Shown piece after piece: positions 5,904 to 15,611 of a stretch of 64,000 nucleotides of DNA. Made by a program: the position numbers and the translations under genes. Below the pieces are notes generated by a model. That model did not search any database, had not been told where the DNA came from, and worked only from the letters and a program-made list of their open reading frames with translations. Positions within the stretch are counted from its first letter, which is position 1. Every line of letters begins with the position of its first letter. The stretch comes from an uncultured Chloroflexia bacterium (GTDB lineage Bacteria; Chloroflexota; Limnocylindria; QHBO01). The DNA is taken from positions 393,021 to 457,020 of the forward strand of contig CAWGTN010000002.1 in the NCBI GenBank assembly GCA_963825525.1, read 5' to 3'.

Positions 5904-6155
5904 ATGACCAGCATGACCGCCGACGAGCGTGACGATCTTCGCAAGGACCAGTTCGCCTACGTCGACCGCGAGGGTGGCGAGCACCTGCCGATCCACGACG
6001 AGTCCCACGTGCGAAACGCCATTGCTCGCTTCAACCAGACCGATTTCGAGAGCAAGACGGCCAAGGAGGAGGCGCGCAAGAAGATCCTGCGCGCCGCCGA
6101 TCGGCACGGCATCGAAGTGGACGAGGACAGCAACGTCCGCCAACCGGTGCGCTGA
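5904..6155 (+). CDS. small acidic hypothetical protein, translationally coupled to ku
   Basis: ATG at 5904 preceded by GAGGAG. The 83-aa product begins MTSMTADERDDLRKDQFAYVDREGGEHLPIHDESHVRNAIARFNQ. Its stop TGA shares a base with the ku ATG (TGATG). Confidence 0.6.
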   Translation: MTSMTADERDDLRKDQFAYVDREGGEHLPIHDESHVRNAIARFNQTDFESKTAKEEARKKILRAADRHGIEVDEDSNVRQPVR

Positions 6156-6986
6156 TGCGACCGATCTGGAAGGGCGCAATCAGCTTCGGGATGGTCACCA
6201 TCCCGGTGAAGGTCTACACGGCCACCGAGGGGAAGGACGTGCGGTTCCGGCTCCTCCACAAGACGGACGGAGCGCCGATCGAGGAGAAGCGGTTCTGCAC
6301 CGAGGATGGGAAGGAAGTGGCCTGGGATGACCTCGTCCGTGGATACGAGGTCAGCAAGGGCGAGTTCGTGATCCTGGAGCCCGACGAGATCGACGCAGCC
6401 AAGCCTGAAAGCAGCACGACGATCGACATCGGCGACTTCGTGGAGGCTTCGGAGATCGACGCCGTCTACTTCGAGAAGAGCTACTTCCTCGAGCCGACCG
6501 GGGTCGGTGCCAAGCCCTTCAGCCTCCTGCGCCGCGCGCTCGAGGAGACCGATCGAGTGGCCCTGGCACGCGTGACACTCCGAACCCGGGAGCGGCTCGC
6601 CACGCTCCGCACGTACGAGGACACGCTGCTCCTCGAGACGATGTTCTGGCCCGATGAGATTCGATCGACCGGTGCGCTGGACCTTCCCGAAGGCGAGGAG
6701 GCGCGCGTCCGTGGCAAGGAGCTCGACATGGCGCGAACCCTCATCGGCGATCTGGCCGACCGGTTCCGTCCCGAGCGCTATACCGACACATACCGGACGG
6801 CGCTCGAGAGCCTGATCGAGCAGAAGATGCGGGGCGAGGTAAAGAACTCGAAGCGTCGAAAGGCCGAGCCCAAGGTCATCGACCTCATGGAGGCGCTCAA
6901 GGCGAGTGTTGCGGAGGCCGGCAAGAAGGGCACGAAGCGTCGCTCCGACCGCGGGCCGGCAGAAGAAGCGCCGCTCCGCCGCCTGA
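6155..6986 (+). CDS. ku: Ku family non-homologous end-joining DNA-binding protein; 3' end inferred assuming a 1-nt indel near 6953
   Basis: N-terminus MRPIWKGAISFGMVTIPVKVYTATE is diagnostic. As given, the frame has no stop until 7795 and runs antisense through the convergent gene. A 1-nt change in the GGG run at 6953-6955 yields the K/R-rich tail ...RRSDRGRQKKRRSAA followed by TGA at 6984-6986. Confidence 0.8.
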
Positions 6987-6991
6987 GTCGG

Positions 6992-7672
6992 CTAGAAGCG
7001 CTCCTGCTCTTCCTCGAGGTCGTCGCCGCCGACGCTCCCCGACCGCTCGGGTTCCGCGGATCCGCCGACACCGAGCGTGACGTCCGCCCGCGACGTCCCC
7101 TCCACTTCGCGACGCTCACCCGGAGTGAAGCTGTCGCTCGTGTCGTCGGGCGTCAGGTCGCCGGTGGCGCCGGTCATGCCGCCACCACCGGCGTTGCCGC
7201 GATCGGTCATCGCTGGCTTCCCGCCTCGACCTCGCCGCGCCAGGCGCCCGATCTCGGAGCCGCGGCTCTCGATGAACTCCTTGAAGCGTTCGAGGTCGCC
7301 CTTGACCTGACGGTCGAGGAACCCGAGCGCGCTTCCGACGGTCTCGACCAGTCCCTCTGGGTCAGCGTCCAGCTGCAGGGTCACCCGGGTCGTCTCGTCG
7401 TCGATGCGGTGAAAAGTCACGACGCCGGCGTTATCGGCGCCCGAGGTGGAGTTCCACGCCACGCGCTCGTCGGCATGCTGCTCGGTGACCTCGGCGTCCC
7501 ACTCCTTTTCCTTGCCCGCCACCTCGGCAACCCAATGGAGATGGGTGTCATCGGTCTGCGTGACCGACTTCACGCCTTCCATGAAGTGAGGGAAGTCCTC
7601 GAACTGGGTCCACTGGTTGTAGGCGGTGCTGACGGGCACCTTGACGTCGATGCTCTCTACGACGGAAGCCAT
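6992..7672 (-). CDS. SRPBCC (polyketide cyclase/dehydrase, START-like) family protein with Gly/Asp-rich C-terminal tail
   Basis: ATG at 7672 with GAGGAG 7 nt upstream; product begins MASVVESIDVKVPVSTAYNQWTQFEDFPHFMEGVKSV. Confidence 0.8.
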   Translation of the reverse strand: MASVVESIDVKVPVSTAYNQWTQFEDFPHFMEGVKSVTQTDDTHLHWVAEVAGKEKEWDAEVTEQHADERVAWNSTSGADNAGVVTFHRIDDETTRVTLQLDADPEGLVETVGSALGFLDRQVKGDLERFKEFIESRGSEIGRLARRGRGGKPAMTDRGNAGGGGMTGATGDLTPDDTSDSFTPGERREVEGTSRADVTLGVGGSAEPERSGSVGGDDLEEEQERF

Positions 7673-7840
7673 GGTCGATCTCCTCTGCGCGTGCGGCGCG
7701 ATGCGATACGTGGTTGCCTGACCACCTTGCAAGGGACGCGCCAGCGCGCACCTCCTCCCATCCCGGCTGAGGGCAAAGGGTCCGTATACTCATGAGGCCC
7801 GCCGCCACCCAGCCCGTCCCGATGTGCCCGCGGAGGCTCC

Positions 7841-10057
7841 GTGCAGTTCACTCCCCCGAGCGTCCCCCGTAAGCCGAGTGCGTGGCTCGCTCTCGGGTGG
7901 CTGGCCGCGATGATCCTGGTCGCCTCGATCGCGCCGGCGCGGGTATCGGCGCACGCCGAGCTCGTGACCTCCGACCCGATCGCGAACAGCTCACTTGTCG
8001 AGGCCCCGTCGACCCTGACGGTGACGTTCAGCGAACGGATCGATCCTGATCGGGCCAGCATCGAGGTACTCGATCTCCAGCTGCGCCCGGTCGCGGGCGT
8101 CGGGCCGGCGCGGGTCGACCCCGAGGGCGTCACCGTCACCTTGGACCTGCCCGTCCTGGATCCGGACGTCTACACCGTCCGCTATGACGTGGTATCGACG
8201 ACCGATGGCCACACGACCAGTGGGTTCTATGCGTTCATCGTCGATCCGACCGGTGCCCAGGCGCCGCCGAGCTCGACGCCCACCGCAACGTCCCCCTCCG
8301 CGGACGCGTTGGCGGTTGCTGCCCGCTGGCTGAGCCTGCTGGGCACGCTGATCGGGCTCGGCACCCTGGTGACCTGGTGGCACTCCGGCCGCCCGCTGGG
8401 CTTCCTGGTGCCCTGGCGCCTCGTGGCCGTGTCATCGTTCGTGGGCGCAGGGGCGCTGGCGGTCTACCTCATGCTCTCCGCCCGCACCATTCCCCCGGGG
8501 CCGGGTGGCCTGCCATTCGACCCTGCGGCCGCGTTCGGGTGGACGCCGTTTGCGGTGGCGATGCGAGTGGCCCTGCTGGGCGGACTGCTGGCCGGGTCGC
8601 TTGCCATCCTCGGAGCGATACGAGGGTCAGCCACCGGTCGGTGGTTGGTCGTCGCCGTGGCGCTTGCGGTCGGCACCTCGCTGGCGGGAATGAGCGCCGG
8701 CGGCCATGGATCGTCCCTCGGTGGACCCGTCAACGGGGCGATCGACTGGCTCCACCTGGTGGCGGCGGCTGCGTGGCTCGGGGGCATCCCGGCGATCTAC
8801 GTCATGGGGCGAAGAACCGCGACGCGGGACGTGCTGCGCCGGCATGGCAGGCTGGCCCTGGTTGCGGCCCCACTCGTCATCCTGACCGGGGTCGCCAACT
8901 CCCCCCTGGTCCTGGGCTCGGCGCGCGGCCTGGTGGCCAGCGAGTACGGCAACCTGCTGCTCGCCAAGGCCACGTTGGCCAGCATCGCGCTCGCAATCGG
9001 CGCTGTGAACCACTTCCTCCTCCGCGGTCGCGGGCGCGGGAGCGCGTCCCTCCTGGTCGCCGCCGAGCTCTCGGTGGCGGTGGTGGCCGTGCTGGCTGCC
9101 GCCACGATGGTGACGGTCCAGCCAGCTGCGGCCCGCCAGGACGTTGTGATCGGGCCGGCCATTCAGCCCGCGCACTTCTTCGGTGAGGCCGGTCCCACGT
9201 CGATCCATGCCTCGGTCAGCATCCCAGCCCCGGGCCGCCAGACGTACCAGGTCACCCTTCGCGACGCCGATACGGGAGCGCCCCGCGACGACATCCAGAA
9301 GGTCTTCCTCGAGTTCACGCCAGTGGAGACCATCGGGCTTGGCACCGAACGCATCGAGCTGGAGCCGAACACGCTCGAGGGTCTGTACTCGACGGCCGCG
9401 GCGGCCACCCCGGTCATCGGCGAGTGGCAGATGCGCGTTGTCGTCCGGCGCGCCGGTGCGCTCGACGAGTCCGTCGAGTTCGGGATGGCGGTACAGGAGC
9501 CCGGCCCCGCCCTGCGTGCCCCGCCGCCGGATACCGGCATCGGCGTCCCGTCACCGATGGCGGCGCTGTGGACGGCGCTGCCCTCGGGGTTGTCGGGCTG
9601 GATCCCGGCCTTCGCGTTGCTCGGGTTAGGCATATGGCTCGGCCGCGTTCATGCGGGACTCGCTCGCCTGCGCATCCCGGTCCTGGCGCTGGCCGTGATC
9701 CTGTTCCTCGGCGTCGGATCTCGTTCCCTGGTGGAGGGTGCGAATCGGCCGACGGTGTCGGACCTGGCGCCATACGCAAGTGCCGCCGCCGGGGATCCCG
9801 AGATCGGCGAGCGCATCTACCGGGCGAACTGCGCGGCGTGCCACGGGACCGATGGCACCGGCGACGGTCCGGTGCAGACGGCCGTGACACCGAGGTCGCT
9901 TGCCGATCGGGTCCCCGCCCTCTCCGACGCCGAGGTGTCGTACCGTATTGCGACGGGCACCGCGGGCACGCCGATGCCGGCCTTTGCCGCCAGCCTGACC
10001 GAACAGGAGCGCGATGACCTCGTGAGCTACCTTCGGGCCAGGTGGGGCACGCCGTGA
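7841..10057 (+). CDS. copper resistance CopC-CopD fusion protein with C-terminal class I cytochrome c domain
   Basis: Signal peptide followed by HAELVTSDP, which is the CopC N-terminal His after cleavage. A polytopic CopD-like region follows. The C-terminus carries CAACHG (CXXCH). Confidence 0.85.
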   Translation: MQFTPPSVPRKPSAWLALGWLAAMILVASIAPARVSAHAELVTSDPIANSSLVEAPSTLTVTFSERIDPDRASIEVLDLQLRPVAGVGPARVDPEGVTVTLDLPVLDPDVYTVRYDVVSTTDGHTTSGFYAFIVDPTGAQAPPSSTPTATSPSADALAVAARWLSLLGTLIGLGTLVTWWHSGRPLGFLVPWRLVAVSSFVGAGALAVYLMLSARTIPPGPGGLPFDPAAAFGWTPFAVAMRVALLGGLLAGSLAILGAIRGSATGRWLVVAVALAVGTSLAGMSAGGHGSSLGGPVNGAIDWLHLVAAAAWLGGIPAIYVMGRRTATRDVLRRHGRLALVAAPLVILTGVANSPLVLGSARGLVASEYGNLLLAKATLASIALAIGAVNHFLLRGRGRGSASLLVAAELSVAVVAVLAAATMVTVQPAAARQDVVIGPAIQPAHFFGEAGPTSIHASVSIPAPGRQTYQVTLRDADTGAPRDDIQKVFLEFTPVETIGLGTERIELEPNTLEGLYSTAAAATPVIGEWQMRVVVRRAGALDESVEFGMAVQEPGPALRAPPPDTGIGVPSPMAALWTALPSGLSGWIPAFALLGLGIWLGRVHAGLARLRIPVLALAVILFLGVGSRSLVEGANRPTVSDLAPYASAAAGDPEIGERIYRANCAACHGTDGTGDGPVQTAVTPRSLADRVPALSDAEVSYRIATGTAGTPMPAFAASLTEQERDDLVSYLRARWGTP

Positions 10058-10084
10058 TCGCGATCCAGACGAGGAGAAGATGAG

Positions 10085-10459
10085 ATGCAGAGACTTGTGC
10101 GCCCGCTGACCGCACTCGCCGCGGGGACGTTGCTCCTCGCCGGCTGCGCGGGGGGCGAATCGGGCTGCACGGACCTCCCGGACCGTGTCGAGATCACCGT
10201 GACCGCCGAGGCATTGGTTCCCGCCCAGCCCGCGGTGTGTGCAGGGCACGAGGTGACGCTGGTCCTGACCGCCGAGGTCGACGGAGTGCTCCACATCCAT
10301 GGCTACGACGAAGAGGCGCCGGCGACCCCGATCGTGGCCGGCGAGGTCAAGGAGCTCACGTTCACGGCGTCCCGCAGCGGTCAGTTTCCGGTGGAGCTCC
10401 ACAGCAATGACGACCCGCAGGGCGTCGATGTAGGGATCTTCACAGTCCATGAGCCCTAG
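10085..10459 (+). CDS. lipoprotein, putative cupredoxin-like metal-binding domain
   Basis: Lipobox LLAGC; HIHGY...ELHS motifs; overlaps the next gene by 11 nt. Confidence 0.65.
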   Translation: MQRLVRPLTALAAGTLLLAGCAGGESGCTDLPDRVEITVTAEALVPAQPAVCAGHEVTLVLTAEVDGVLHIHGYDEEAPATPIVAGEVKELTFTASRSGQFPVELHSNDDPQGVDVGIFTVHEP

Positions 10460-11978
10460 CCGACGGACTGCCGCGGTCGCCGCGGCCCTGGTCTTGCTGC
10501 TCATGCTCATCCCGGGTCGCGTGGCAGCGCACGCCGTCGGCGGGACGTTCGAGCTGCCGGTGCCGCTGTGGCTCTATCTGGCCGGTGCCGGCGCCGCCGT
10601 GGCTGCGTCGTTCGTCGTGCTGGCCGTGGCGTCGCGCGGGGCACCCAGGGCAGCGCCCATCATCCCGATTCCTGCGTCACTGGAGCACGTCGCCCGGCCC
10701 GTGCTCCGTGCCCTCGGGATGGTGTGGTGGTACGGCGCCATCGTGGTTGGGTTCGTGATCGGCGACATCTCGCCGCTGCCGGCCGTGCTGCTGTGGATCG
10801 GCATCTGGGTCGGTCTGCCCATCGTCTCGGTGCTGATCGGCAATCCATGGCCGTCGCTCAGCCCATTCCGCACGACCTTCGCGGGTCTCGAGTGGCTGGC
10901 GCGGCGTGCCGGCGCGGGTCGGCTGGACCTGGGCCTCACCTACCCTCCGGGCCTGGCGCGCTGGCCGGCATTCGCTCTTCTGGCGATTGCCATCTGGGTC
11001 GAGCTCGTGCTGCCGGGCGGCGAGGTGGCGGGCACCGTGGCGGTCCTCATGCTGTCGTACACGGTGATCACCTTGGCCGGGATGCTGTCCGTTGGACCCG
11101 CCGCATGGCTCCGTCACGCCGAACTGTTCGAGGTCCTGCTCGGTTGGTTCGGCAGGATCGGGCCGATCGGTCGCATCTCGACCGATCCCGCCCTGTGCGC
11201 CGGCTGCGGCGATGAATGCGATCCGTCCCGATGCGTTGATTGCCCCGAGTGCTCCACCACGGCCGATGATGGCGAACGCCATGCGGTGCTGCGGCCCTGG
11301 GCCGCCGGGCTGATGGACGCGGGCCGGTCCGGTCCGTCCGACGCGGCATTCATCATCCTGGCGCTGGCCGGCGTCACCTACGACGGACTGCAAGAGACCT
11401 CGATCGGTGGATGGCTGTTCGACCTCGTCTACGGTCCACTCGCCTCGCTGCTGGGTCCCACGGACGCCCGGACGTTCCTCCTCGCCGAGACGGCGCAGTT
11501 CGCGCTGGTCTTCGTCTCATTCATGGCGGCCTTCGTGCTGGTGATCGCGTCGGCCCGGCTCATCGGCGCATCTCAGCACCGGCGACCCCTCGGGTCGGAC
11601 CTCGGCCGCTACGCGATCACCCTGCTCCCGATCGCGGGCGGATACCTCATCGCGCACTACTTCACGCTGGTCATCCAGGGCATCGTCTGGCTGCCGTCGC
11701 TGATCGTCGATCCGTTGATGAGCCTGGCCCCCCAGCTCGACGCCATCCCGATTGCTCTCGTCTGGTACACGAGCGTCGGGGCGATCGTGGTCGGGCACGT
11801 CATCGGGATCGTGCTGGCGCATCGGCTTGCGAAGGCGGATGACCCGAGCCGCTCGACCATCGCCGGCCTACCCCTGGTCGGGTTGATGATCGGATACACG
11901 GTCCTGTCACTCTGGATCATCGCCGCGCCGCTGGTCGTCGAGCCCGGTATTCCGCCGGCCGCGCTGCTCCTTCCATGA
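10449..11978 (+). CDS. polytopic membrane protein of unknown function with a six-Cys loop and His immediately after the predicted signal-peptide cleavage site
   Basis: 509 aa with about 10 TM segments. Predicted signal-peptide cleavage at VAA/HAVGG. Cys cluster CAGCGDECDPSRCVDCPEC at 11195-11252. The stop overlaps the ccdA start (ATGA). Confidence 0.7.
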   Translation: MSPSRRTAAVAAALVLLLMLIPGRVAAHAVGGTFELPVPLWLYLAGAGAAVAASFVVLAVASRGAPRAAPIIPIPASLEHVARPVLRALGMVWWYGAIVVGFVIGDISPLPAVLLWIGIWVGLPIVSVLIGNPWPSLSPFRTTFAGLEWLARRAGAGRLDLGLTYPPGLARWPAFALLAIAIWVELVLPGGEVAGTVAVLMLSYTVITLAGMLSVGPAAWLRHAELFEVLLGWFGRIGPIGRISTDPALCAGCGDECDPSRCVDCPECSTTADDGERHAVLRPWAAGLMDAGRSGPSDAAFIILALAGVTYDGLQETSIGGWLFDLVYGPLASLLGPTDARTFLLAETAQFALVFVSFMAAFVLVIASARLIGASQHRRPLGSDLGRYAITLLPIAGGYLIAHYFTLVIQGIVWLPSLIVDPLMSLAPQLDAIPIALVWYTSVGAIVVGHVIGIVLAHRLAKADDPSRSTIAGLPLVGLMIGYTVLSLWIIAAPLVVEPGIPPAALLLP

Positions 11979-12688
11979 CCGAGGTCAGCATCGGGCTTGC
12001 GTTCCTTGCCGGCCTGATCTCGTTCATCTCGCCGTGCGTGCTGGCCCTGCTGCCGGTCTACCTTGCCTTCCTGGGCGATGCGGCTGCGCTTTCGACCATT
12101 CCGGGCGGTGCAACCGTCACCTCGAGGACGTCGGTTGTCACGCAGGCGCTGCTGTTCATCGGCGGCTTCACGGCCGTCTTCGTGATCCTCGGCACGTCAC
12201 TGGGCCTCGTCGGCGGGCCGCTGTTCCGGATCCCGGAGATCCGGCAGGTTGCGGGCGTGGCCGTGATCGTCCTCGGGGTCCTGACGACCGGCGTCTTCGG
12301 CCCGGTCCTCGATCGCGTGCGCGTGGGCCTGGATCCCGCCGCTCTGCCGGCGGCGCGTTCGGTTCGATCGTTGGCGCTCGGTGCGTTCGTGGCGGTCGGC
12401 TGGTCACCGTGCATCGGCCCGGTCCTGGGCGCCATCTTCACGATGGGGGTCTCCAGCGGCTCCGCGCCGGCGGTGTTCGTGCTGCTCGTGGCCTACTCGG
12501 CGGGACTCGCCGTTCCGTTCCTTGCGGCCGCGGTTGCGCTCCCCCGCCTCCGGCCGCTGCTCGACTGGCTGCGGCGTCACCACACGGCGGTCCAAGTGGT
12601 CTCCGGCGCGTTCATTATCGGCATCGGCATCATGATCTTCTTCAACGTCTTCGCCCAGCTTGCGGGGCTGTTCGTCTTCGTGCTGTAG
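11975..12688 (+). CDS. ccdA: cytochrome c-type biogenesis protein CcdA (DsbD-family thiol-disulfide transporter)
   Basis: Motifs SPCVLALLP and WSPCIGP; six TM segments. Confidence 0.85.
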   Translation: MTEVSIGLAFLAGLISFISPCVLALLPVYLAFLGDAAALSTIPGGATVTSRTSVVTQALLFIGGFTAVFVILGTSLGLVGGPLFRIPEIRQVAGVAVIVLGVLTTGVFGPVLDRVRVGLDPAALPAARSVRSLALGAFVAVGWSPCIGPVLGAIFTMGVSSGSAPAVFVLLVAYSAGLAVPFLAAAVALPRLRPLLDWLRRHHTAVQVVSGAFIIGIGIMIFFNVFAQLAGLFVFVL

Positions 12689-12744
12689 GACTGGCACGGG
12701 CCCTGCGTCGTCCCTCTGGCAAAGCCGAGTACCAGGAGAACCCG

Positions 12745-13317
12745 ATGAACCTCGACGGACTCAAGGTCGCCGTGCTGGTGACCGATGGTTACGAGCCAAG
12801 CGAGCTGACGGAGCCGGTCGCCGCCCTGCAGCAGGCGGGAGCGACCACCACGATCATCTCGAACCACGACGGCACCATCACTGGGAAGACTGATGCCGAC
12901 ACCGCGCAGGTCGACCTCACCCTCGACGGGGCCGATGCTGCCGAGTTCGACGCATTGCTGATCCCCGGCGGCACGAAGAATCCCGACACAATGCGACAGG
13001 AGCCGAAGGCGGTCGATTTCGTGCGCGCCATGTTCGACGCGAAGAAGCCGATGGCCTCCATCTGCCACGGCCCGTGGATGCTCATCGAGGCCGACGTCGT
13101 GCGCGGCCGCCGCGTGACGAGCTACCCCTCGCTGAGGACGGACCTGCGCAACGCCGGCGCCGAGTGGACCGATGAGGAGGTCGTCGTCGACCAGGGCCTC
13201 GTCACGGCCCGCACGCCGAAGGATCTCCCCGCGTTCAACGCCAAGATGGTCGAGGAGTTCGGCGAGGGCACCCACGACCGCCGATCGACGGCCGCCGAGC
13301 CCGTCAGCGCCGGCTGA
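12745..13317 (+). CDS. DJ-1/PfpI family protein (type 1 glutamine amidotransferase-like)
   Basis: ATG at 12745 with AGGAGA upstream; motif ASICHGPWMLIEA. The 5' two-thirds of ORF 12034..13317 are nonsense. Confidence 0.85.
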   Translation: MNLDGLKVAVLVTDGYEPSELTEPVAALQQAGATTTIISNHDGTITGKTDADTAQVDLTLDGADAAEFDALLIPGGTKNPDTMRQEPKAVDFVRAMFDAKKPMASICHGPWMLIEADVVRGRRVTSYPSLRTDLRNAGAEWTDEEVVVDQGLVTARTPKDLPAFNAKMVEEFGEGTHDRRSTAAEPVSAG

Positions 13318-13426
13318 CGATCGGGAGGCGGGATGTCGAGCGCGTCCTCGCCCGAGTCGCGCACCGAGGCACCGCAGCAAGCGCCTGCCGAGGGTCGTCC
13401 GGCGCCGTGATCGGTATCCTTGCGGC

Positions 13427-13772
13427 ATGCCAGCCATTCCCAGCGGGACGGTCACCTTCGTGTTCACCGATATCGAAGGCAGCACGCAGCTTCTGAAGCG
13501 GCTTGGAGACCGCTACGCCGAGCTCCTGGGCCAGCATCGGCGCCTGCTGCGCGCCACCTTTGCCGAGCATGACGGCCAGGAGATCGACACGCAGGGCGAT
13601 GCGTTCTTCTATTCGTTCGCACGTGCCCGCCAGGCAGTGGCCGCGGCGGTCCAGGCCCAGCGAGCGCACGACGAAGCCTCGTGGCCCGACGACGTCGTCC
13701 TCCGCGTCCGGATGGGCCTCCACACCGGTGAGCCTCTCGTCGGTGAGGAGGGGTACACCGGCCTCGATGTCG
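13427..13772 (+). pseudogene. 5' fragment of a class III adenylate/guanylate cyclase-domain regulator gene (cyclase-ATPase-LuxR type), truncated
   Basis: MPAIPSGTVTFVFTDIEGSTQLL...GDAFFYSF...RVRMGLHTGEP...YTGLDV matches the cyclase catalytic-domain N-terminus. Homology stops abruptly after about 115 codons. The ORF then runs on through a lower-GC tail into the convergent response-regulator gene. Confidence 0.55.
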
Positions 13773-13913
13773 TCCTGACCGACGATGACTTGGCAGTGGG
13801 CGCCCAGCCCATCCGACATGTTTGCGGTGCTTTCCACCGGATGGACCGCACTTGTCACGATGCTGCCAAAGAGTCGGGGCTCGGCCCTGCACGGACCAGT
13901 ACGTGGAACGCCG

Positions 13914-14507
13914 CTACTCGGTGCCCTCGAGCCAGCCCTCTCGCAGCGCCCTGGCCGTCAGCTCCGTGCGTGAGGCGACGCCCGTTCGTTCGAACAGTCG
14001 CCGCAGATGCGATTCCACGGTTCTCGAGCTGATGCCAAGCCGCCCGCCGATCTCATCGTTCGACGAGCCGCTGACGATGAGGTCGACCACCTCCCGCTCC
14101 CGGGCCGATAGCCGGACCCCACCTCCGGGCCTGACGCCGAAGGCCAGTCCGCCCGAGGCCGCCCGCCGAATCGCGTCCAGCAGCTCCGACGTGGGGGCGG
14201 TCTTGACCACAAACCCGGCCGCGCCGAGCCGCATGGCGGCATCGGCGTATTGAGGGTAGTCGTACGACGTCAGGCAGACCACGGCCGGCAATGCCGAGTC
14301 ACCGCGGTCGCGCAGGAGCTCGAATCCGGACTCCTGCCCGAGGCGGAGGTCGAGCAGCAGGACGTCGACCGAGCCATCGAGGAGCGGGCGCAGCTCGTCC
14401 AGCGATCCAGCCACTCCGGCGATCTGCATGTCATCGGCGCGATCGATGATGGCGGCCGTTCCCTCGCGCACCAGCGGATGGTCGTCGACGACCGCGACCC
14501 GGATCAT
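13914..14507 (-). CDS. two-component response regulator, NarL/LuxR family
   Basis: Receiver domain VAVVDDHPLVREG...LLLDLRL followed by a LuxR helix-turn-helix LSAREREVVDLIVSGSSNDEIGGRLGISSRTVESHL. Confidence 0.9.
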   Translation of the reverse strand: MIRVAVVDDHPLVREGTAAIIDRADDMQIAGVAGSLDELRPLLDGSVDVLLLDLRLGQESGFELLRDRGDSALPAVVCLTSYDYPQYADAAMRLGAAGFVVKTAPTSELLDAIRRAASGGLAFGVRPGGGVRLSAREREVVDLIVSGSSNDEIGGRLGISSRTVESHLRRLFERTGVASRTELTARALREGWLEGTE

Positions 14508-14519
14508 CGGCTCACTGGC

Positions 14520-15611
14520 TCATTGCGGGCGCCACTCGAGAGCGACACGCGTGCCGCCGCTCGGCCAGCGACGAACGTCGAGCAGGGCGCCGATCTGCTC
14601 CGCCCGCTGCTGCATGTTGACGAGCCCGAAGTGGCCATCGCCCGGCGCCTCCTCGGTGGCGTCGGAGCCGATCCCGTCGCCGGCGTCGTCGATGGCCAGC
14701 GTGACCCGTCCATCGGCGCTCACGTCGTAGCGGACCGCGATCGGCGGCTTGCCATGCTTGATCGCATTGGTCAGCGCTTCCTGGGCGACGCGGAAGACCG
14801 CCAGCTCCACGTCGGCGGGCGGGCGCGAGGCGTCGGAGCGCTCGAGCTTCACCACGCCGCCGGCAAGGGGCTCGACACGCTCGACGAGCCATTCGAGCGC
14901 GGCTCCGGCACCCAGATCGTCGAGGATCGGCAGGCGCAGGTCCCCGACCACGGAGCGCAGCTTCGTCGCGACCTCGCGTGCCTCGGCGGCTTCGGCTTCG
15001 TGGCCACCCTCGTCGAGGGTACGGACCAGCATGGTGAGCTGCTGGAGCGCGTCGTCGTGGAGGTCCGCGGCCAGGCGAGCGCGCTCCGTCTCCGCGGCCG
15101 CGACCGCGACGTCGCGCTGGAGCTGGGTCCTGACTGCCAGTCCAACGAGCGGATTGATCGCGAGGTAGCGCCAGACCACGATCCCGCCAAGCCAGCCGGC
15201 AAGGATCAGCCCGCCGGCCGAGTTCGGTACGAGGACCAGCGACGCGACAAGTGGTGTTGCGGCCACCGCAAGCGTCTCGAGGCGCCACGCCATCGCCCTC
15301 GGTTCGGTCCGATCAGCGAAGGCGACCGGGATGCCCGGGATGAGTGGGATCAATCCCACCAGAGGGACGAAGAAGCGGGATTGGAGCAGGGCGGTGATGA
15401 CGAACAGGCCGGCGAGGCCGACCGAAGCCATGAAGAGGCGTGCCGCAAGTGATGGATCGGAGTGGCGCGACGCGAGCAGATGCGCGACCGACAATCCGGC
15501 AAAGGCGGCCGGCAGCAACAGGATCGGTTGACCTTCGGAGTACGACCCCCAGGCGGCGGGCACCAGGAGGATCGGAACGGCGACGGCTGCTGCCAGACGG
15601 AATGGCCGCAT
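14520..15611 (-). CDS. sensor histidine kinase, HisKA_3/NarL-type, multi-TM N-terminus
   Basis: About five TM helices, followed by the H-box LAADLHDDALQQL and an HATPase_c region (DDAGDGIG, GLVNMQQRA). In this frame, TGA lies 20 codons upstream of the ATG. Confidence 0.85.
   Translation of the reverse strand: MRPFRLAAAVAVPILLVPAAWGSYSEGQPILLLPAAFAGLSVAHLLASRHSDPSLAARLFMASVGLAGLFVITALLQSRFFVPLVGLIPLIPGIPVAFADRTEPRAMAWRLETLAVAATPLVASLVLVPNSAGGLILAGWLGGIVVWRYLAINPLVGLAVRTQLQRDVAVAAAETERARLAADLHDDALQQLTMLVRTLDEGGHEAEAAEAREVATKLRSVVGDLRLPILDDLGAGAALEWLVERVEPLAGGVVKLERSDASRPPADVELAVFRVAQEALTNAIKHGKPPIAVRYDVSADGRVTLAIDDAGDGIGSDATEEAPGDGHFGLVNMQQRAEQIGALLDVRRWPSGGTRVALEWRPQ

Follow-up and report, generated by a model that had tools for sequence, protein, structure and literature searches.

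This work reports that a 509-residue polytopic membrane protein, encoded on the forward strand of a 64,000-nucleotide stretch of DNA from an uncultured Chloroflexia bacterium (positions 393,021 to 457,020 of contig CAWGTN010000002.1; hereafter the window, meaning the whole stretch that was analysed, in whose numbering positions are given unless another locus is named), is, as judged from sequence comparison, the founder of a large, widespread and previously undescribed membrane-protein family. Its gene stands in an operon between the gene of a cupredoxin-like lipoprotein, which is the constant genomic companion of the family, and ccdA. The operon follows a familiar logic around an unfamiliar central membrane component. 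Judged from the structural model, the family is probably new, as is its fold relative to solved structures, and its likely role falls within a process of a type already known. A copper-related role is likely, and we tentatively propose that the protein may be a metal permease or relay, most likely for copper, which would work with periplasmic copper-binding proteins.

The membrane protein and its family

The open reading frame (ORF) at 10449-11978, taken from the ORF listing with its translation, is a genuine gene. It shares 11 nucleotides with the upstream lipoprotein ORF (10085-10459), and its stop codon TGA at 11976-11978 forms an ATGA overlap with ccdA, whose ATG begins at 11975. An earlier sequence-only reading of this DNA had described both overlaps, which agree with the coordinates, as well as a 509-residue frame with about 10 transmembrane (TM) segments and a signal peptide VAA/HAVGG that leaves His next, which holds on the ORF, the hydropathy and the model described below. 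The features of the gene are the following.

10449-11978, + strand: ORF of the polytopic membrane protein, ATG start, 509 residues
10449-10529, + strand: signal peptide with predicted cleavage, residues 1-27 (MSPSRR and a hydrophobic core of 15 residues, ending in VAA ahead of HAVGG)
11196-11252, + strand: six-Cys motif CAGCGDECDPSRCVDCPEC, C250 to C268, holding all six Cys of the protein
11655-11822, + strand: polar residues of TM8, the outside loop L8 and TM9 (H403, 11655-11657; D421-P422, 11709-11714; H450, 11796-11798; H458, 11820-11822)

The codon of His28 (10530-10532) directly follows VAA and is predicted to encode the first mature residue, with cleavage before it suggested by the sequence of the site. 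In the AlphaFold2 model, which was built on a 58-sequence alignment (pLDDT 90.1, pTM 0.89), confidence is low only at residues 27-30, the sole such internal stretch, and at the C-terminus; a helix is seen at residues 5-19, and DSSP analysis of the model together with hydropathy gives about 10 TM helices after the signal peptide. No paralogs were found within the window, and a promoter and terminator scan of positions 7000-13500 gave no signal above shuffled expectation.

The scans of the protein against Pfam and NCBIfam gave no match even at E<=1, the best match of a PDB sequence search had E=0.24, and Foldseek of the model against solved structures returned no match at E<=1e-3, with a best TM-score of 0.18. 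The weak PDB matches (E 0.24) align residues 214-295, including the Cys loop, with the C-terminal part of TnpB-type nucleases, presumably their zinc-finger region, and are at chance level. These searches bear out the earlier remark that the protein could not be placed in a known family, and the literature searched contained no earlier description of the family, of a cupredoxin with an HxHGYD motif or of the pair linked to SigC and copper membrane monooxygenase (CuMMO) genes. The family itself is large, since HMMER over 1.84 billion cluster representatives recovered 2,206 clusters at E<=1e-3 and 1,005 at E<=1e-10 (clusters at 50% identity), and a 5.8-billion-protein collection holds thousands of further members; all members with a source name are called 'hypothetical protein', and the core region carries no Pfam domain. 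When one genome per species was scanned with a 12-sequence alignment, at least 564 species genomes were found to carry relatives. They occur within Chloroflexota in Limnocylindria (the window's own clade) and Dehalococcoidia, and also in Rubrobacter, Methylomirabilota/Rokubacteria, Gemmatimonadota, Deinococcota and Zixibacteria and in Alpha-, Beta- and Gammaproteobacteria, while tblastn against plasmids located them in cultured Variovorax, Rhizobium, Pseudonocardia, Mycobacterium/Mycolicibacterium and many haloarchaea, all annotated as hypothetical.

Conservation was assessed over 363 family members, many of them about 30% identical, and a small set of polar residues is nearly invariant: H28 (357/363), E185 (355/363), R282 (356/363), D312 (360/363), H403 (356/363), D421 (349/363) with P422 (355/363), H450 (354/363) and H458 (355/363). 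M480 is kept in 96% of the members, and several Trp, Pro and Gly are also near-invariant. The conserved ligand-type set thus consists of His, Asp and Glu with one Met (M480), with no Met- or Cys-rich path.

The N-terminal His had been likened in the sequence-only reading to that of the CopC domain encoded upstream, which, as stated there, reads VSA/HAELV. In 108 of 115 representatives the invariant His follows directly on an AxA-like site, and the median length of the sequence ahead of it is 26 residues; the actinobacterial members have only 5-9 residues there and lack coding space further upstream for a signal peptide. The rule in the family, Actinobacteria excepted, therefore appears to be cleavage that leaves His at the N-terminus, and the imidazole of His28 is universal whereas the free alpha-amine is not. 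Because the actinobacterial members have no room for a signal peptide, a histidine brace that uses the N-terminal amine cannot be family-wide. As in the histidine-brace proteins (CopC, YcnI, LPMO, PmoB), predicted cleavage of the signal peptide would leave His as residue 1; however, the known examples are soluble or single-anchor beta-sandwich proteins, the His here heads a helical protein with 10 TM segments, and the actinobacterial relatives, unlike those proteins, keep the His without a signal peptide.

The topology was predicted by applying the positive-inside rule to the helix boundaries of the model over the family. Charge alternates strictly from one loop to the next: the mean number of Lys plus Arg is 2.6, 4.9, 8.3, 1.1 and 2.0 in loops L1, L3, L5, L7 and L9, respectively, and 0.9, 0.6, 0.3, 1.3 and 0.9 in the mature N-terminus and loops L2, L4, L6 and L8, and hence the N-terminus (H28) and the C-terminus are both predicted to lie outside. 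E185 at the outer end of TM4, D312 at the outer end of TM6 and D421-P422 in loop L8 are predicted to face outward; judged by position within the helices, H403 (TM8) and H450 (TM9) would lie mid-membrane on neighbouring helices with H458 at the inner end of TM9, and the Cys-bearing loop L5 (residues 216-295) is predicted to be cytoplasmic. We propose, on this model, that the polar residues encoded at 11655-11822 could form a metal path through the membrane. Some relatives are naturally fused at the C-terminus to extracytoplasmic domains, which independently supports the predicted N-out/C-out arrangement. Among these fusions are a Cu/Zn-superoxide dismutase (SOD) domain (6.6e-34) and a weak YtkA-like match (3.6e-4, below the Pfam threshold), and relatives of about 900 residues have a C-terminal extension of about 400 residues (L048:7453-8649, L075:3920-5320, L076:7420-8685; proteins P0131 and P0186), which gave no Pfam match and which a PDB profile search found to be homologous to the ABC-type di/oligopeptide-binding protein 7fi3 (E 4e-15).

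The six-Cys loop had been pointed out in the sequence-only reading. The loop is present, although its spacing is C250-x2-C253-x3-C257-x4-C262-x2-C265-x2-C268, with x4 in place of the x5 given before and a start at 11196, not 11195; none of 2,000,000 random placements gave such a clustering of six Cys within 19 residues. The motif sits in a lineage-variable, all-or-none insert of about 30 residues, the loop being 45 residues long with the insert and 14 without it, and where the insert is present the Cys spacing is C-x2-C-x3-C-x4-6-C-x2-C-x2-C. Among 121 full-length representatives at 50% identity, 35 have at least six loop Cys, 63 have none and the rest have a partial set. The family alignment thus indicates an optional add-on and not the core of the family. 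In the model, beta-hairpin elements at 240-244 and 277-281 flank the motif, which has two CxxC pairs (C250/C253 and C262/C265); the motif looks like a zinc-ribbon knuckle or a small metal-thiolate cluster, and the ferredoxin motif CxxCxxCxxxCP is absent from the protein. A cytoplasmic loop L5 could not form a single metal site with an extracytoplasmic His28, so that a joint site of Cys loop and N-terminal His, which the sequence-only reading had named as a point to check, does not fit the predicted topology.

The same residues bear on whether the protein might be a membrane redox protein, that is, a cupric or ferric reductase or an electron conduit with heme b on the TM His and an Fe-S centre in the six-Cys loop, linking the cytoplasm or the quinone pool with the periplasmic cupredoxin or a cytochrome c. 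Its partners do have electron-transfer folds (cupredoxin and a c-type cytochrome domain), the invariant mid-membrane His stand on adjacent helices, and C262-x2-C265-x2-C268 resembles part of an Fe-S motif. However, there are three TM His only, of which H450 and H458 are 8 apart on one helix, and not the four-His two-helix pattern of a bis-heme reductase; most of the family can do without the Cys loop, and Pfam, NCBIfam and Foldseek gave no homology to cytochrome b or reductase families. We consider such a redox function improbable.

The cupredoxin-like companion and the operon

The genes that surround the membrane protein in the operon, and the elements of its companion, are as follows.

7841-10057, + strand: fusion of CopC, CopD, a domain of about 200 residues and a c-type cytochrome, 738 residues, first gene of the operon
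10085-10459, + strand: cupredoxin-like lipoprotein, 124 residues, lipobox LAGC (C21), conserved partner of the membrane protein
10166-10168 and 10238-10240, + strand: clade-specific Cys pair C28/C52 of the lipoprotein, spacing C-x22-25-VC
10292-10309, + strand: H70-x-H72-G-Y-D (HIHGYD) of the lipoprotein, H70 and H72 invariant
10400-10402, + strand: H106 of the lipoprotein, nearly invariant
11975-12688, + strand: ccdA (DsbD_TM thiol-disulfide electron transporter), 237 residues, last gene of the operon

The lipoprotein is the most constant neighbour of the membrane protein. With the window copy as tblastn query it was found in 52 of 80 loci of the membrane protein, and the pattern H-x-H-[GS]-[YFWV]-[DEP] occurs in an open frame on the same strand within 1.5 kb upstream in 62 of 86 loci, against 0/86 on the reverse strand and 0/82 downstream. 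Some of its homologs are CopC-partner fusions. The window copy falls below the threshold of Pfam Cupredoxin_1 (PF13473; 17.7 bits against a cut-off of 27); its relatives reach 2.7e-12, with 14 matching at E<=0.01, and a search with its profile recovers CuA domains, NirK and two-domain laccases. Its AlphaFold2 model, built from database homologs (pLDDT 88.5, about 97 in the mature domain), adopts a cupredoxin fold. The best Foldseek matches of this model are the Bacillus anthracis Cupredoxin_1 structures 4hcf, 4hcg and 4hci (probability 1.00, TM-score 0.75-0.79), of which 4hcf and 4hcg are Cu- or Zn-bound crystal forms, and the model also superposes on the ba3 CuA domain, on Escherichia coli EfeO (7wgu) and on Brucella FtrB (8vuk). 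The likeness to the Cupredoxin_1 proteins notwithstanding, no description of its HxHGYD...H signature or of its obligatory pairing with a 10-TM protein was found in the literature searched. A type-1 blue copper site was considered and rejected, as the lipoprotein has no Cys in its C-terminal half and its conserved ligands are H70, H72 and H106. In the PDB profile matches to two-domain laccases and other multicopper oxidases, its HxHG falls in the part aligned with their domain 1, and we take it to resemble the first copper-binding signature (HxHG) of these oxidases.

The downstream gene, ccdA, is a member of DsbD_TM (PF02683; 29.2 bits against a cut-off of 27.1, residues 6-221). It follows the membrane protein in 23 of 80 loci, all of the Limnocylindria type and at least 50% identical to the window protein, while 47 loci have the six-Cys loop without ccdA. 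Its presence goes with the Cys pair of the lipoprotein, which is found in 16 of 19 ccdA loci, the 3 exceptions being fragmentary ORFs, against 0 of 37 loci without ccdA; all these cases belong to one clade (loci L001-L020), in which shared descent is inseparable from functional coupling. CcdA moves reducing power outward, and a cytoplasmic loop L5 would therefore not be its client. On the simplest reading, CcdA serves the thiols of the lipoprotein, the cytochrome c domain of the fusion protein, or both, and apparently not the membrane protein.

These data bear directly on the earlier alternative that the membrane protein is a thiol-handling or cytochrome-c maturation component acting with CcdA through its six-Cys loop. 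The ATGA overlap, the 23 loci with ccdA downstream and the cytochrome c domain in the same operon speak for it, but ccdA is confined to one clade and tracks the Cys pair of the lipoprotein, 47 loci have the Cys loop without it, and the loop is predicted to be cytoplasmic. The link to cytochrome-c maturation drawn in the sequence-only reading thus loses its footing, and we regard such a function as very improbable. Membership among the cytochrome c synthases (CcsBA, ResBC) was also rejected, as the protein has no WWD-like or CxxCH motif and no Pfam match to ResB, CcsA or Cytochrom_C_asm, and the ccdA linkage is limited to one clade.

The first gene of the operon encodes a protein with Pfam matches to CopC (2.1e-16, residues 38-134), CopD (2.2e-12, residues 331-424) and Cytochrome_CBB3/Cytochrom_C (about 1e-12, residues 653-733) and with the NCBIfam matches copper_CopC and copper_CopD. 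By analogy with YcnJ, whose architecture and function as a copper importer have been described (PMC13344008), it is a putative YcnJ-like copper importer. Its middle domain (residues 441-640, nucleotides 9161-9760) gave no Pfam match and is conserved in related loci at 34-65% identity; by the same analogy it could be YtkA-like.

The membrane protein resembles the CopC/CopD and YcnJ-YcnI systems (Bacillus subtilis; PF04234, PF05425) in that a polytopic membrane protein goes together with periplasmic proteins that bind Cu(II) through a mature N-terminal His. The membrane protein and a CopC-CopD fusion stand in the same operon here, and YtkA-like and CopC proteins recur beside the family. YcnJ requires its CopC site and a transmembrane CopD site (PMC13344008). 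However, unlike CopD, the membrane protein has 10 TM helices, other conserved residues and an N-terminal His on the membrane protein itself, and its constant partner is a cupredoxin and not CopC. Membership in CopD was rejected, since there was no Pfam or NCBIfam match at E<=1 and hhalign against an 11-sequence CopD-domain alignment gave 0.13% probability.

Gene contexts and fusions across the family

Elsewhere in the family, the genes directly upstream are in most loci Cupredoxin_1, CopC-CopD-cytochrome c or YtkA genes. Across 80 loci, CopC is found in 23 and a cytochrome domain in 21, as CopC-CopD-cytochrome c fusions, and YtkA-like proteins with an AH N-terminus of their own lie near the membrane protein in 25 loci. 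Multicopper-oxidase-like matches also occur among the neighbours. The involvement with copper suggested in the sequence-only reading is strongly backed by this gene context and by the fusions across phyla.

Two of the proteins that recur upstream deserve mention. In 25 loci (L040:4514-5065 and 24 others), position -2 is taken by a protein of about 190 residues whose signal peptide ends in A/H, which gives it, too, a predicted N-terminal His; a beta-rich domain follows, with a TM anchor at the C-terminus, and weak YtkA-like Pfam matches are seen in some copies. In 9 loci (such as L081:4220-4654, L082:4402-4803 and L046:4173-4595), a small unannotated His-rich membrane protein occupies position -3, upstream of the YtkA-like, cupredoxin and membrane-protein genes; it has the stretch DHHFAERxPYHGHV...HxHP...H(T/S)HD and is probably a further metal-binding component.

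In mycobacteria, the pair stands beside genes for copper enzymes and their regulators. On a plasmid of Mycolicibacterium dioxanotrophicus (L085, 4490-12563), the order is sigC, a hypothetical gene, the lipoprotein, the membrane protein, a zf-HC2 anti-sigma factor and copper membrane monooxygenase C, A and B; on pMYCCH.01 of Mycolicibacterium chubuense NBB4 (L088, 1-8335), hmoAB is followed by sigC, the lipoprotein and the membrane protein. The published account of the NBB4 cluster lists sigC and omits the two hypothetical genes (PMC8784404), and experiments support SigC as a regulator that controls how copper is acquired when it is scarce (PMC7924339). A copper island of Mycolicibacterium gallinarum holds the membrane protein with a CsoR-type regulator, CopC, heme-copper oxidase subunit III, TlpA, a CtaG-type factor and DUF305. 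In Pseudonocardia, a two-component pair follows a homolog.

Such neighbours would also suit a copper hand-off or maturation platform, whose outer His/Asp/Glu site would take copper from CopC, the cupredoxin or YtkA and load SodC, CuA/CuB centres and copper monooxygenases, with no crossing of the membrane. This explanation draws on the Cu/Zn-SOD domain fused to a relative, on the position of the membrane protein beside CuMMO, heme-copper oxidase subunit III and a CtaG-type assembly factor, on the CopD importer already present in the operon, and on the YtkA-like neighbours in 25 loci, as YtkA/CtaK has been implicated in CuA assembly (PMC13344008). It hardly explains, however, the invariant H403, H450 and H458 in or at the inner end of TM helices or the cytoplasmic six-Cys insert, and the solute-binding-like fusions and the loci with P19 and DyP proteins suggest permease systems. 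The SOD fusion and the cuproenzyme neighbours would suit a hand-off in the periplasm equally well. We regard a platform of this kind as rather unlikely.

The haloarchaeal loci have a different setting. In 3 of 4 annotated haloarchaeal loci examined, the membrane protein goes with a DyP-type peroxidase and a P19/FetP-family protein. On Haladaptatus plasmids (L092, 4941-8775; L087, 5941-8593), the genes of the membrane protein, a DyP-type peroxidase (DUF7405) and a P19/FetP 'Fe2+ transport' protein with DUF7350 are adjacent and appear to be one operon, and the annotation of these two operons, over the stretch examined, shows no permease of the FTR1 type; in Halobaculum (L091), the DyP and P19/FetP genes lie a few kilobases downstream. 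By analogy, the Haladaptatus arrangement may be an EfeUOB- or FtrABCD-like one with the permease replaced.

With EfeUOB, FtrABCD, FetMP/P19-Ftr1 and Fet3p-Ftr1p, the family shares the layout of a small non-canonical periplasmic cupredoxin and an inner-membrane permease, and the haloarchaeal loci with DyP (EfeB-like) and P19/FetP recall EfeUOB and FtrABCD. The membrane protein takes the place that a permease has in such systems: in EfeUOB, the cupredoxin domain of EfeO and EfeB go with EfeU, as CopC goes with CopD. In the FtrABCD system, FtrA (P19) and FtrB (a cupredoxin) serve FtrC, and FtrD is a polyferredoxin, of which the cytoplasmic Cys-rich element of the membrane protein is reminiscent (PMC11966278). 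The differences are that the membrane protein has 10 TM helices against 7 in the FTR1 type, that the lipoprotein has HxHG...H where FtrB has an Asp/His/Glu set, and that the contexts are mostly copper and not iron. Membership in FTR1/OFeT (EfeU, FtrC, FetM) was rejected, with no Pfam match at E<=1 and no RExxE motif in the protein.

An iron permease analogous to EfeU, FtrC or Ftr1 might nevertheless be envisaged, for which a periplasmic cupredoxin (like FtrB, the EfeO Cup domain or Fet3) would oxidise or present the iron, with the six Cys as an electron sink like FtrD. The matches of the lipoprotein model to EfeO (7wgu) and FtrB (8vuk), the DyP-type peroxidase and P19/FetP 'Fe2+ transport protein' that share operons with haloarchaeal members, a conserved His/Asp/Glu set that suits iron and the logic of FtrABCD (PMC11966278) all point that way. 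However, the window and most loci are copper-specific (CopC, CopD, YtkA, the SOD_Cu fusion, CuMMO, SigC and the CsoR island), the protein has neither REXXE motifs nor a Pfam FTR1 match, and the Cys loop is missing in about half of the family and carries no ferredoxin motif. P19 proteins, moreover, bind copper themselves. Iron permeation as the function of the family is thus unlikely, although iron is possible for some branches.

Proposed function, significance and surroundings

Based on these findings, we tentatively propose that the membrane protein may act as a metal permease or relay, most likely for copper. For the window protein we favour copper, since all of its neighbours in the operon, like most contexts in the family, are copper-specific. 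The likeness of the lipoprotein fold to EfeO and FtrB, which are periplasmic partners of FTR1-type permeases, argues for a permease role (PMC11966278), and in the Haladaptatus operons with DyP and P19/FetP and no annotated FTR1 the membrane protein sits where a permease would be expected. The fused solute-binding-protein-like domain, which is typical of importers, argues for import. What the data show is the anatomy, the conservation, the gene context and the lack of relatives; we infer the identity of the metal, the fact of transport and its direction alike, and the direction is held less firmly than the proposal itself.

The proposed mechanism would run as follows. First, after cleavage of the signal peptide, the protein would stand in the membrane with 10 TM helices and both ends outside. 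The cupredoxin-like lipoprotein with its HxH...H ligands, and here also the CopC domain of the YcnJ-like protein, would capture copper outside the cell and pass it on to the membrane protein, whose outward-facing entry site would be formed by His28 and the carboxylates E185, D312 and D421. The ion could then move by way of H403 and H450 in mid-membrane and H458 at the inner face to the cytoplasm, where the six-Cys knuckle, in the third of the family that has it, may receive or buffer the metal or bind structural zinc.

Several observations weigh against this proposal. A set of His, Asp and Glu with one Met is unusual for proteins that move Cu(I) and would be just as fitting for Cu(II), Fe or Zn; with a putative importer of the CopD type already in the operon, a second importer looks redundant; hhalign detected no internal repeat between the N-terminal and C-terminal halves of the protein; and no genes related to metals stand beside the membrane protein in some distant loci of Proteobacteria and haloarchaea. 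A more far-reaching version of the proposal, which we hold to be doubtful though conceivable, is that the family represents a new class of metal transporter with a new membrane fold, namely a His-lined copper permease with a processed N-terminal His as entry and a dedicated HxH...H cupredoxin, supplying, in bacteria and haloarchaea alike, cuproenzymes such as copper monooxygenases, SodC and heme-copper oxidases.

The delivery of copper to and across the bacterial cytoplasmic membrane is acknowledged as under-explored (PMC13344008). Few families of copper importers are known, and the family described here is abundant and yet has no annotation, domain model or solved structural relative. If it is a copper permease or relay, it would fill a gap in the supply of cuproenzymes, for example of the hydrocarbon-oxidising copper monooxygenases on mycobacterial plasmids, would let annotation pipelines name thousands of proteins now called 'hypothetical', and would provide a new membrane fold; if the His-lined copper permease holds, bacteria would have, besides CopCD/YcnJ and CcoA, a third general route for taking up copper. 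The module comprises just two genes, and the family occurs in cultured Mycolicibacterium, Rhodococcus-type actinobacteria, Variovorax, Rhizobium and haloarchaea.

Downstream of the operon, the window carries a DJ-1/PfpI gene, an ORF with an adenylate/guanylate-cyclase domain and, on the opposite strand, a LuxR-type response regulator with a HisKA_3 histidine kinase (12751-13317, + strand; 13914-14507, - strand; 14520-15611, - strand), and no link was established between these genes (12751-15611) and the copper operon. Upstream of it, at 6155-7795 on the + strand, lies a 546-residue frame headed by a Ku domain (Pfam Ku 1.2e-50, residues 10-192), the distal part of which overlaps a convergent SRPBCC/polyketide-cyclase-like gene (6992-7732, - strand); beyond the Ku domain, the frame is probably a high-GC artefact.

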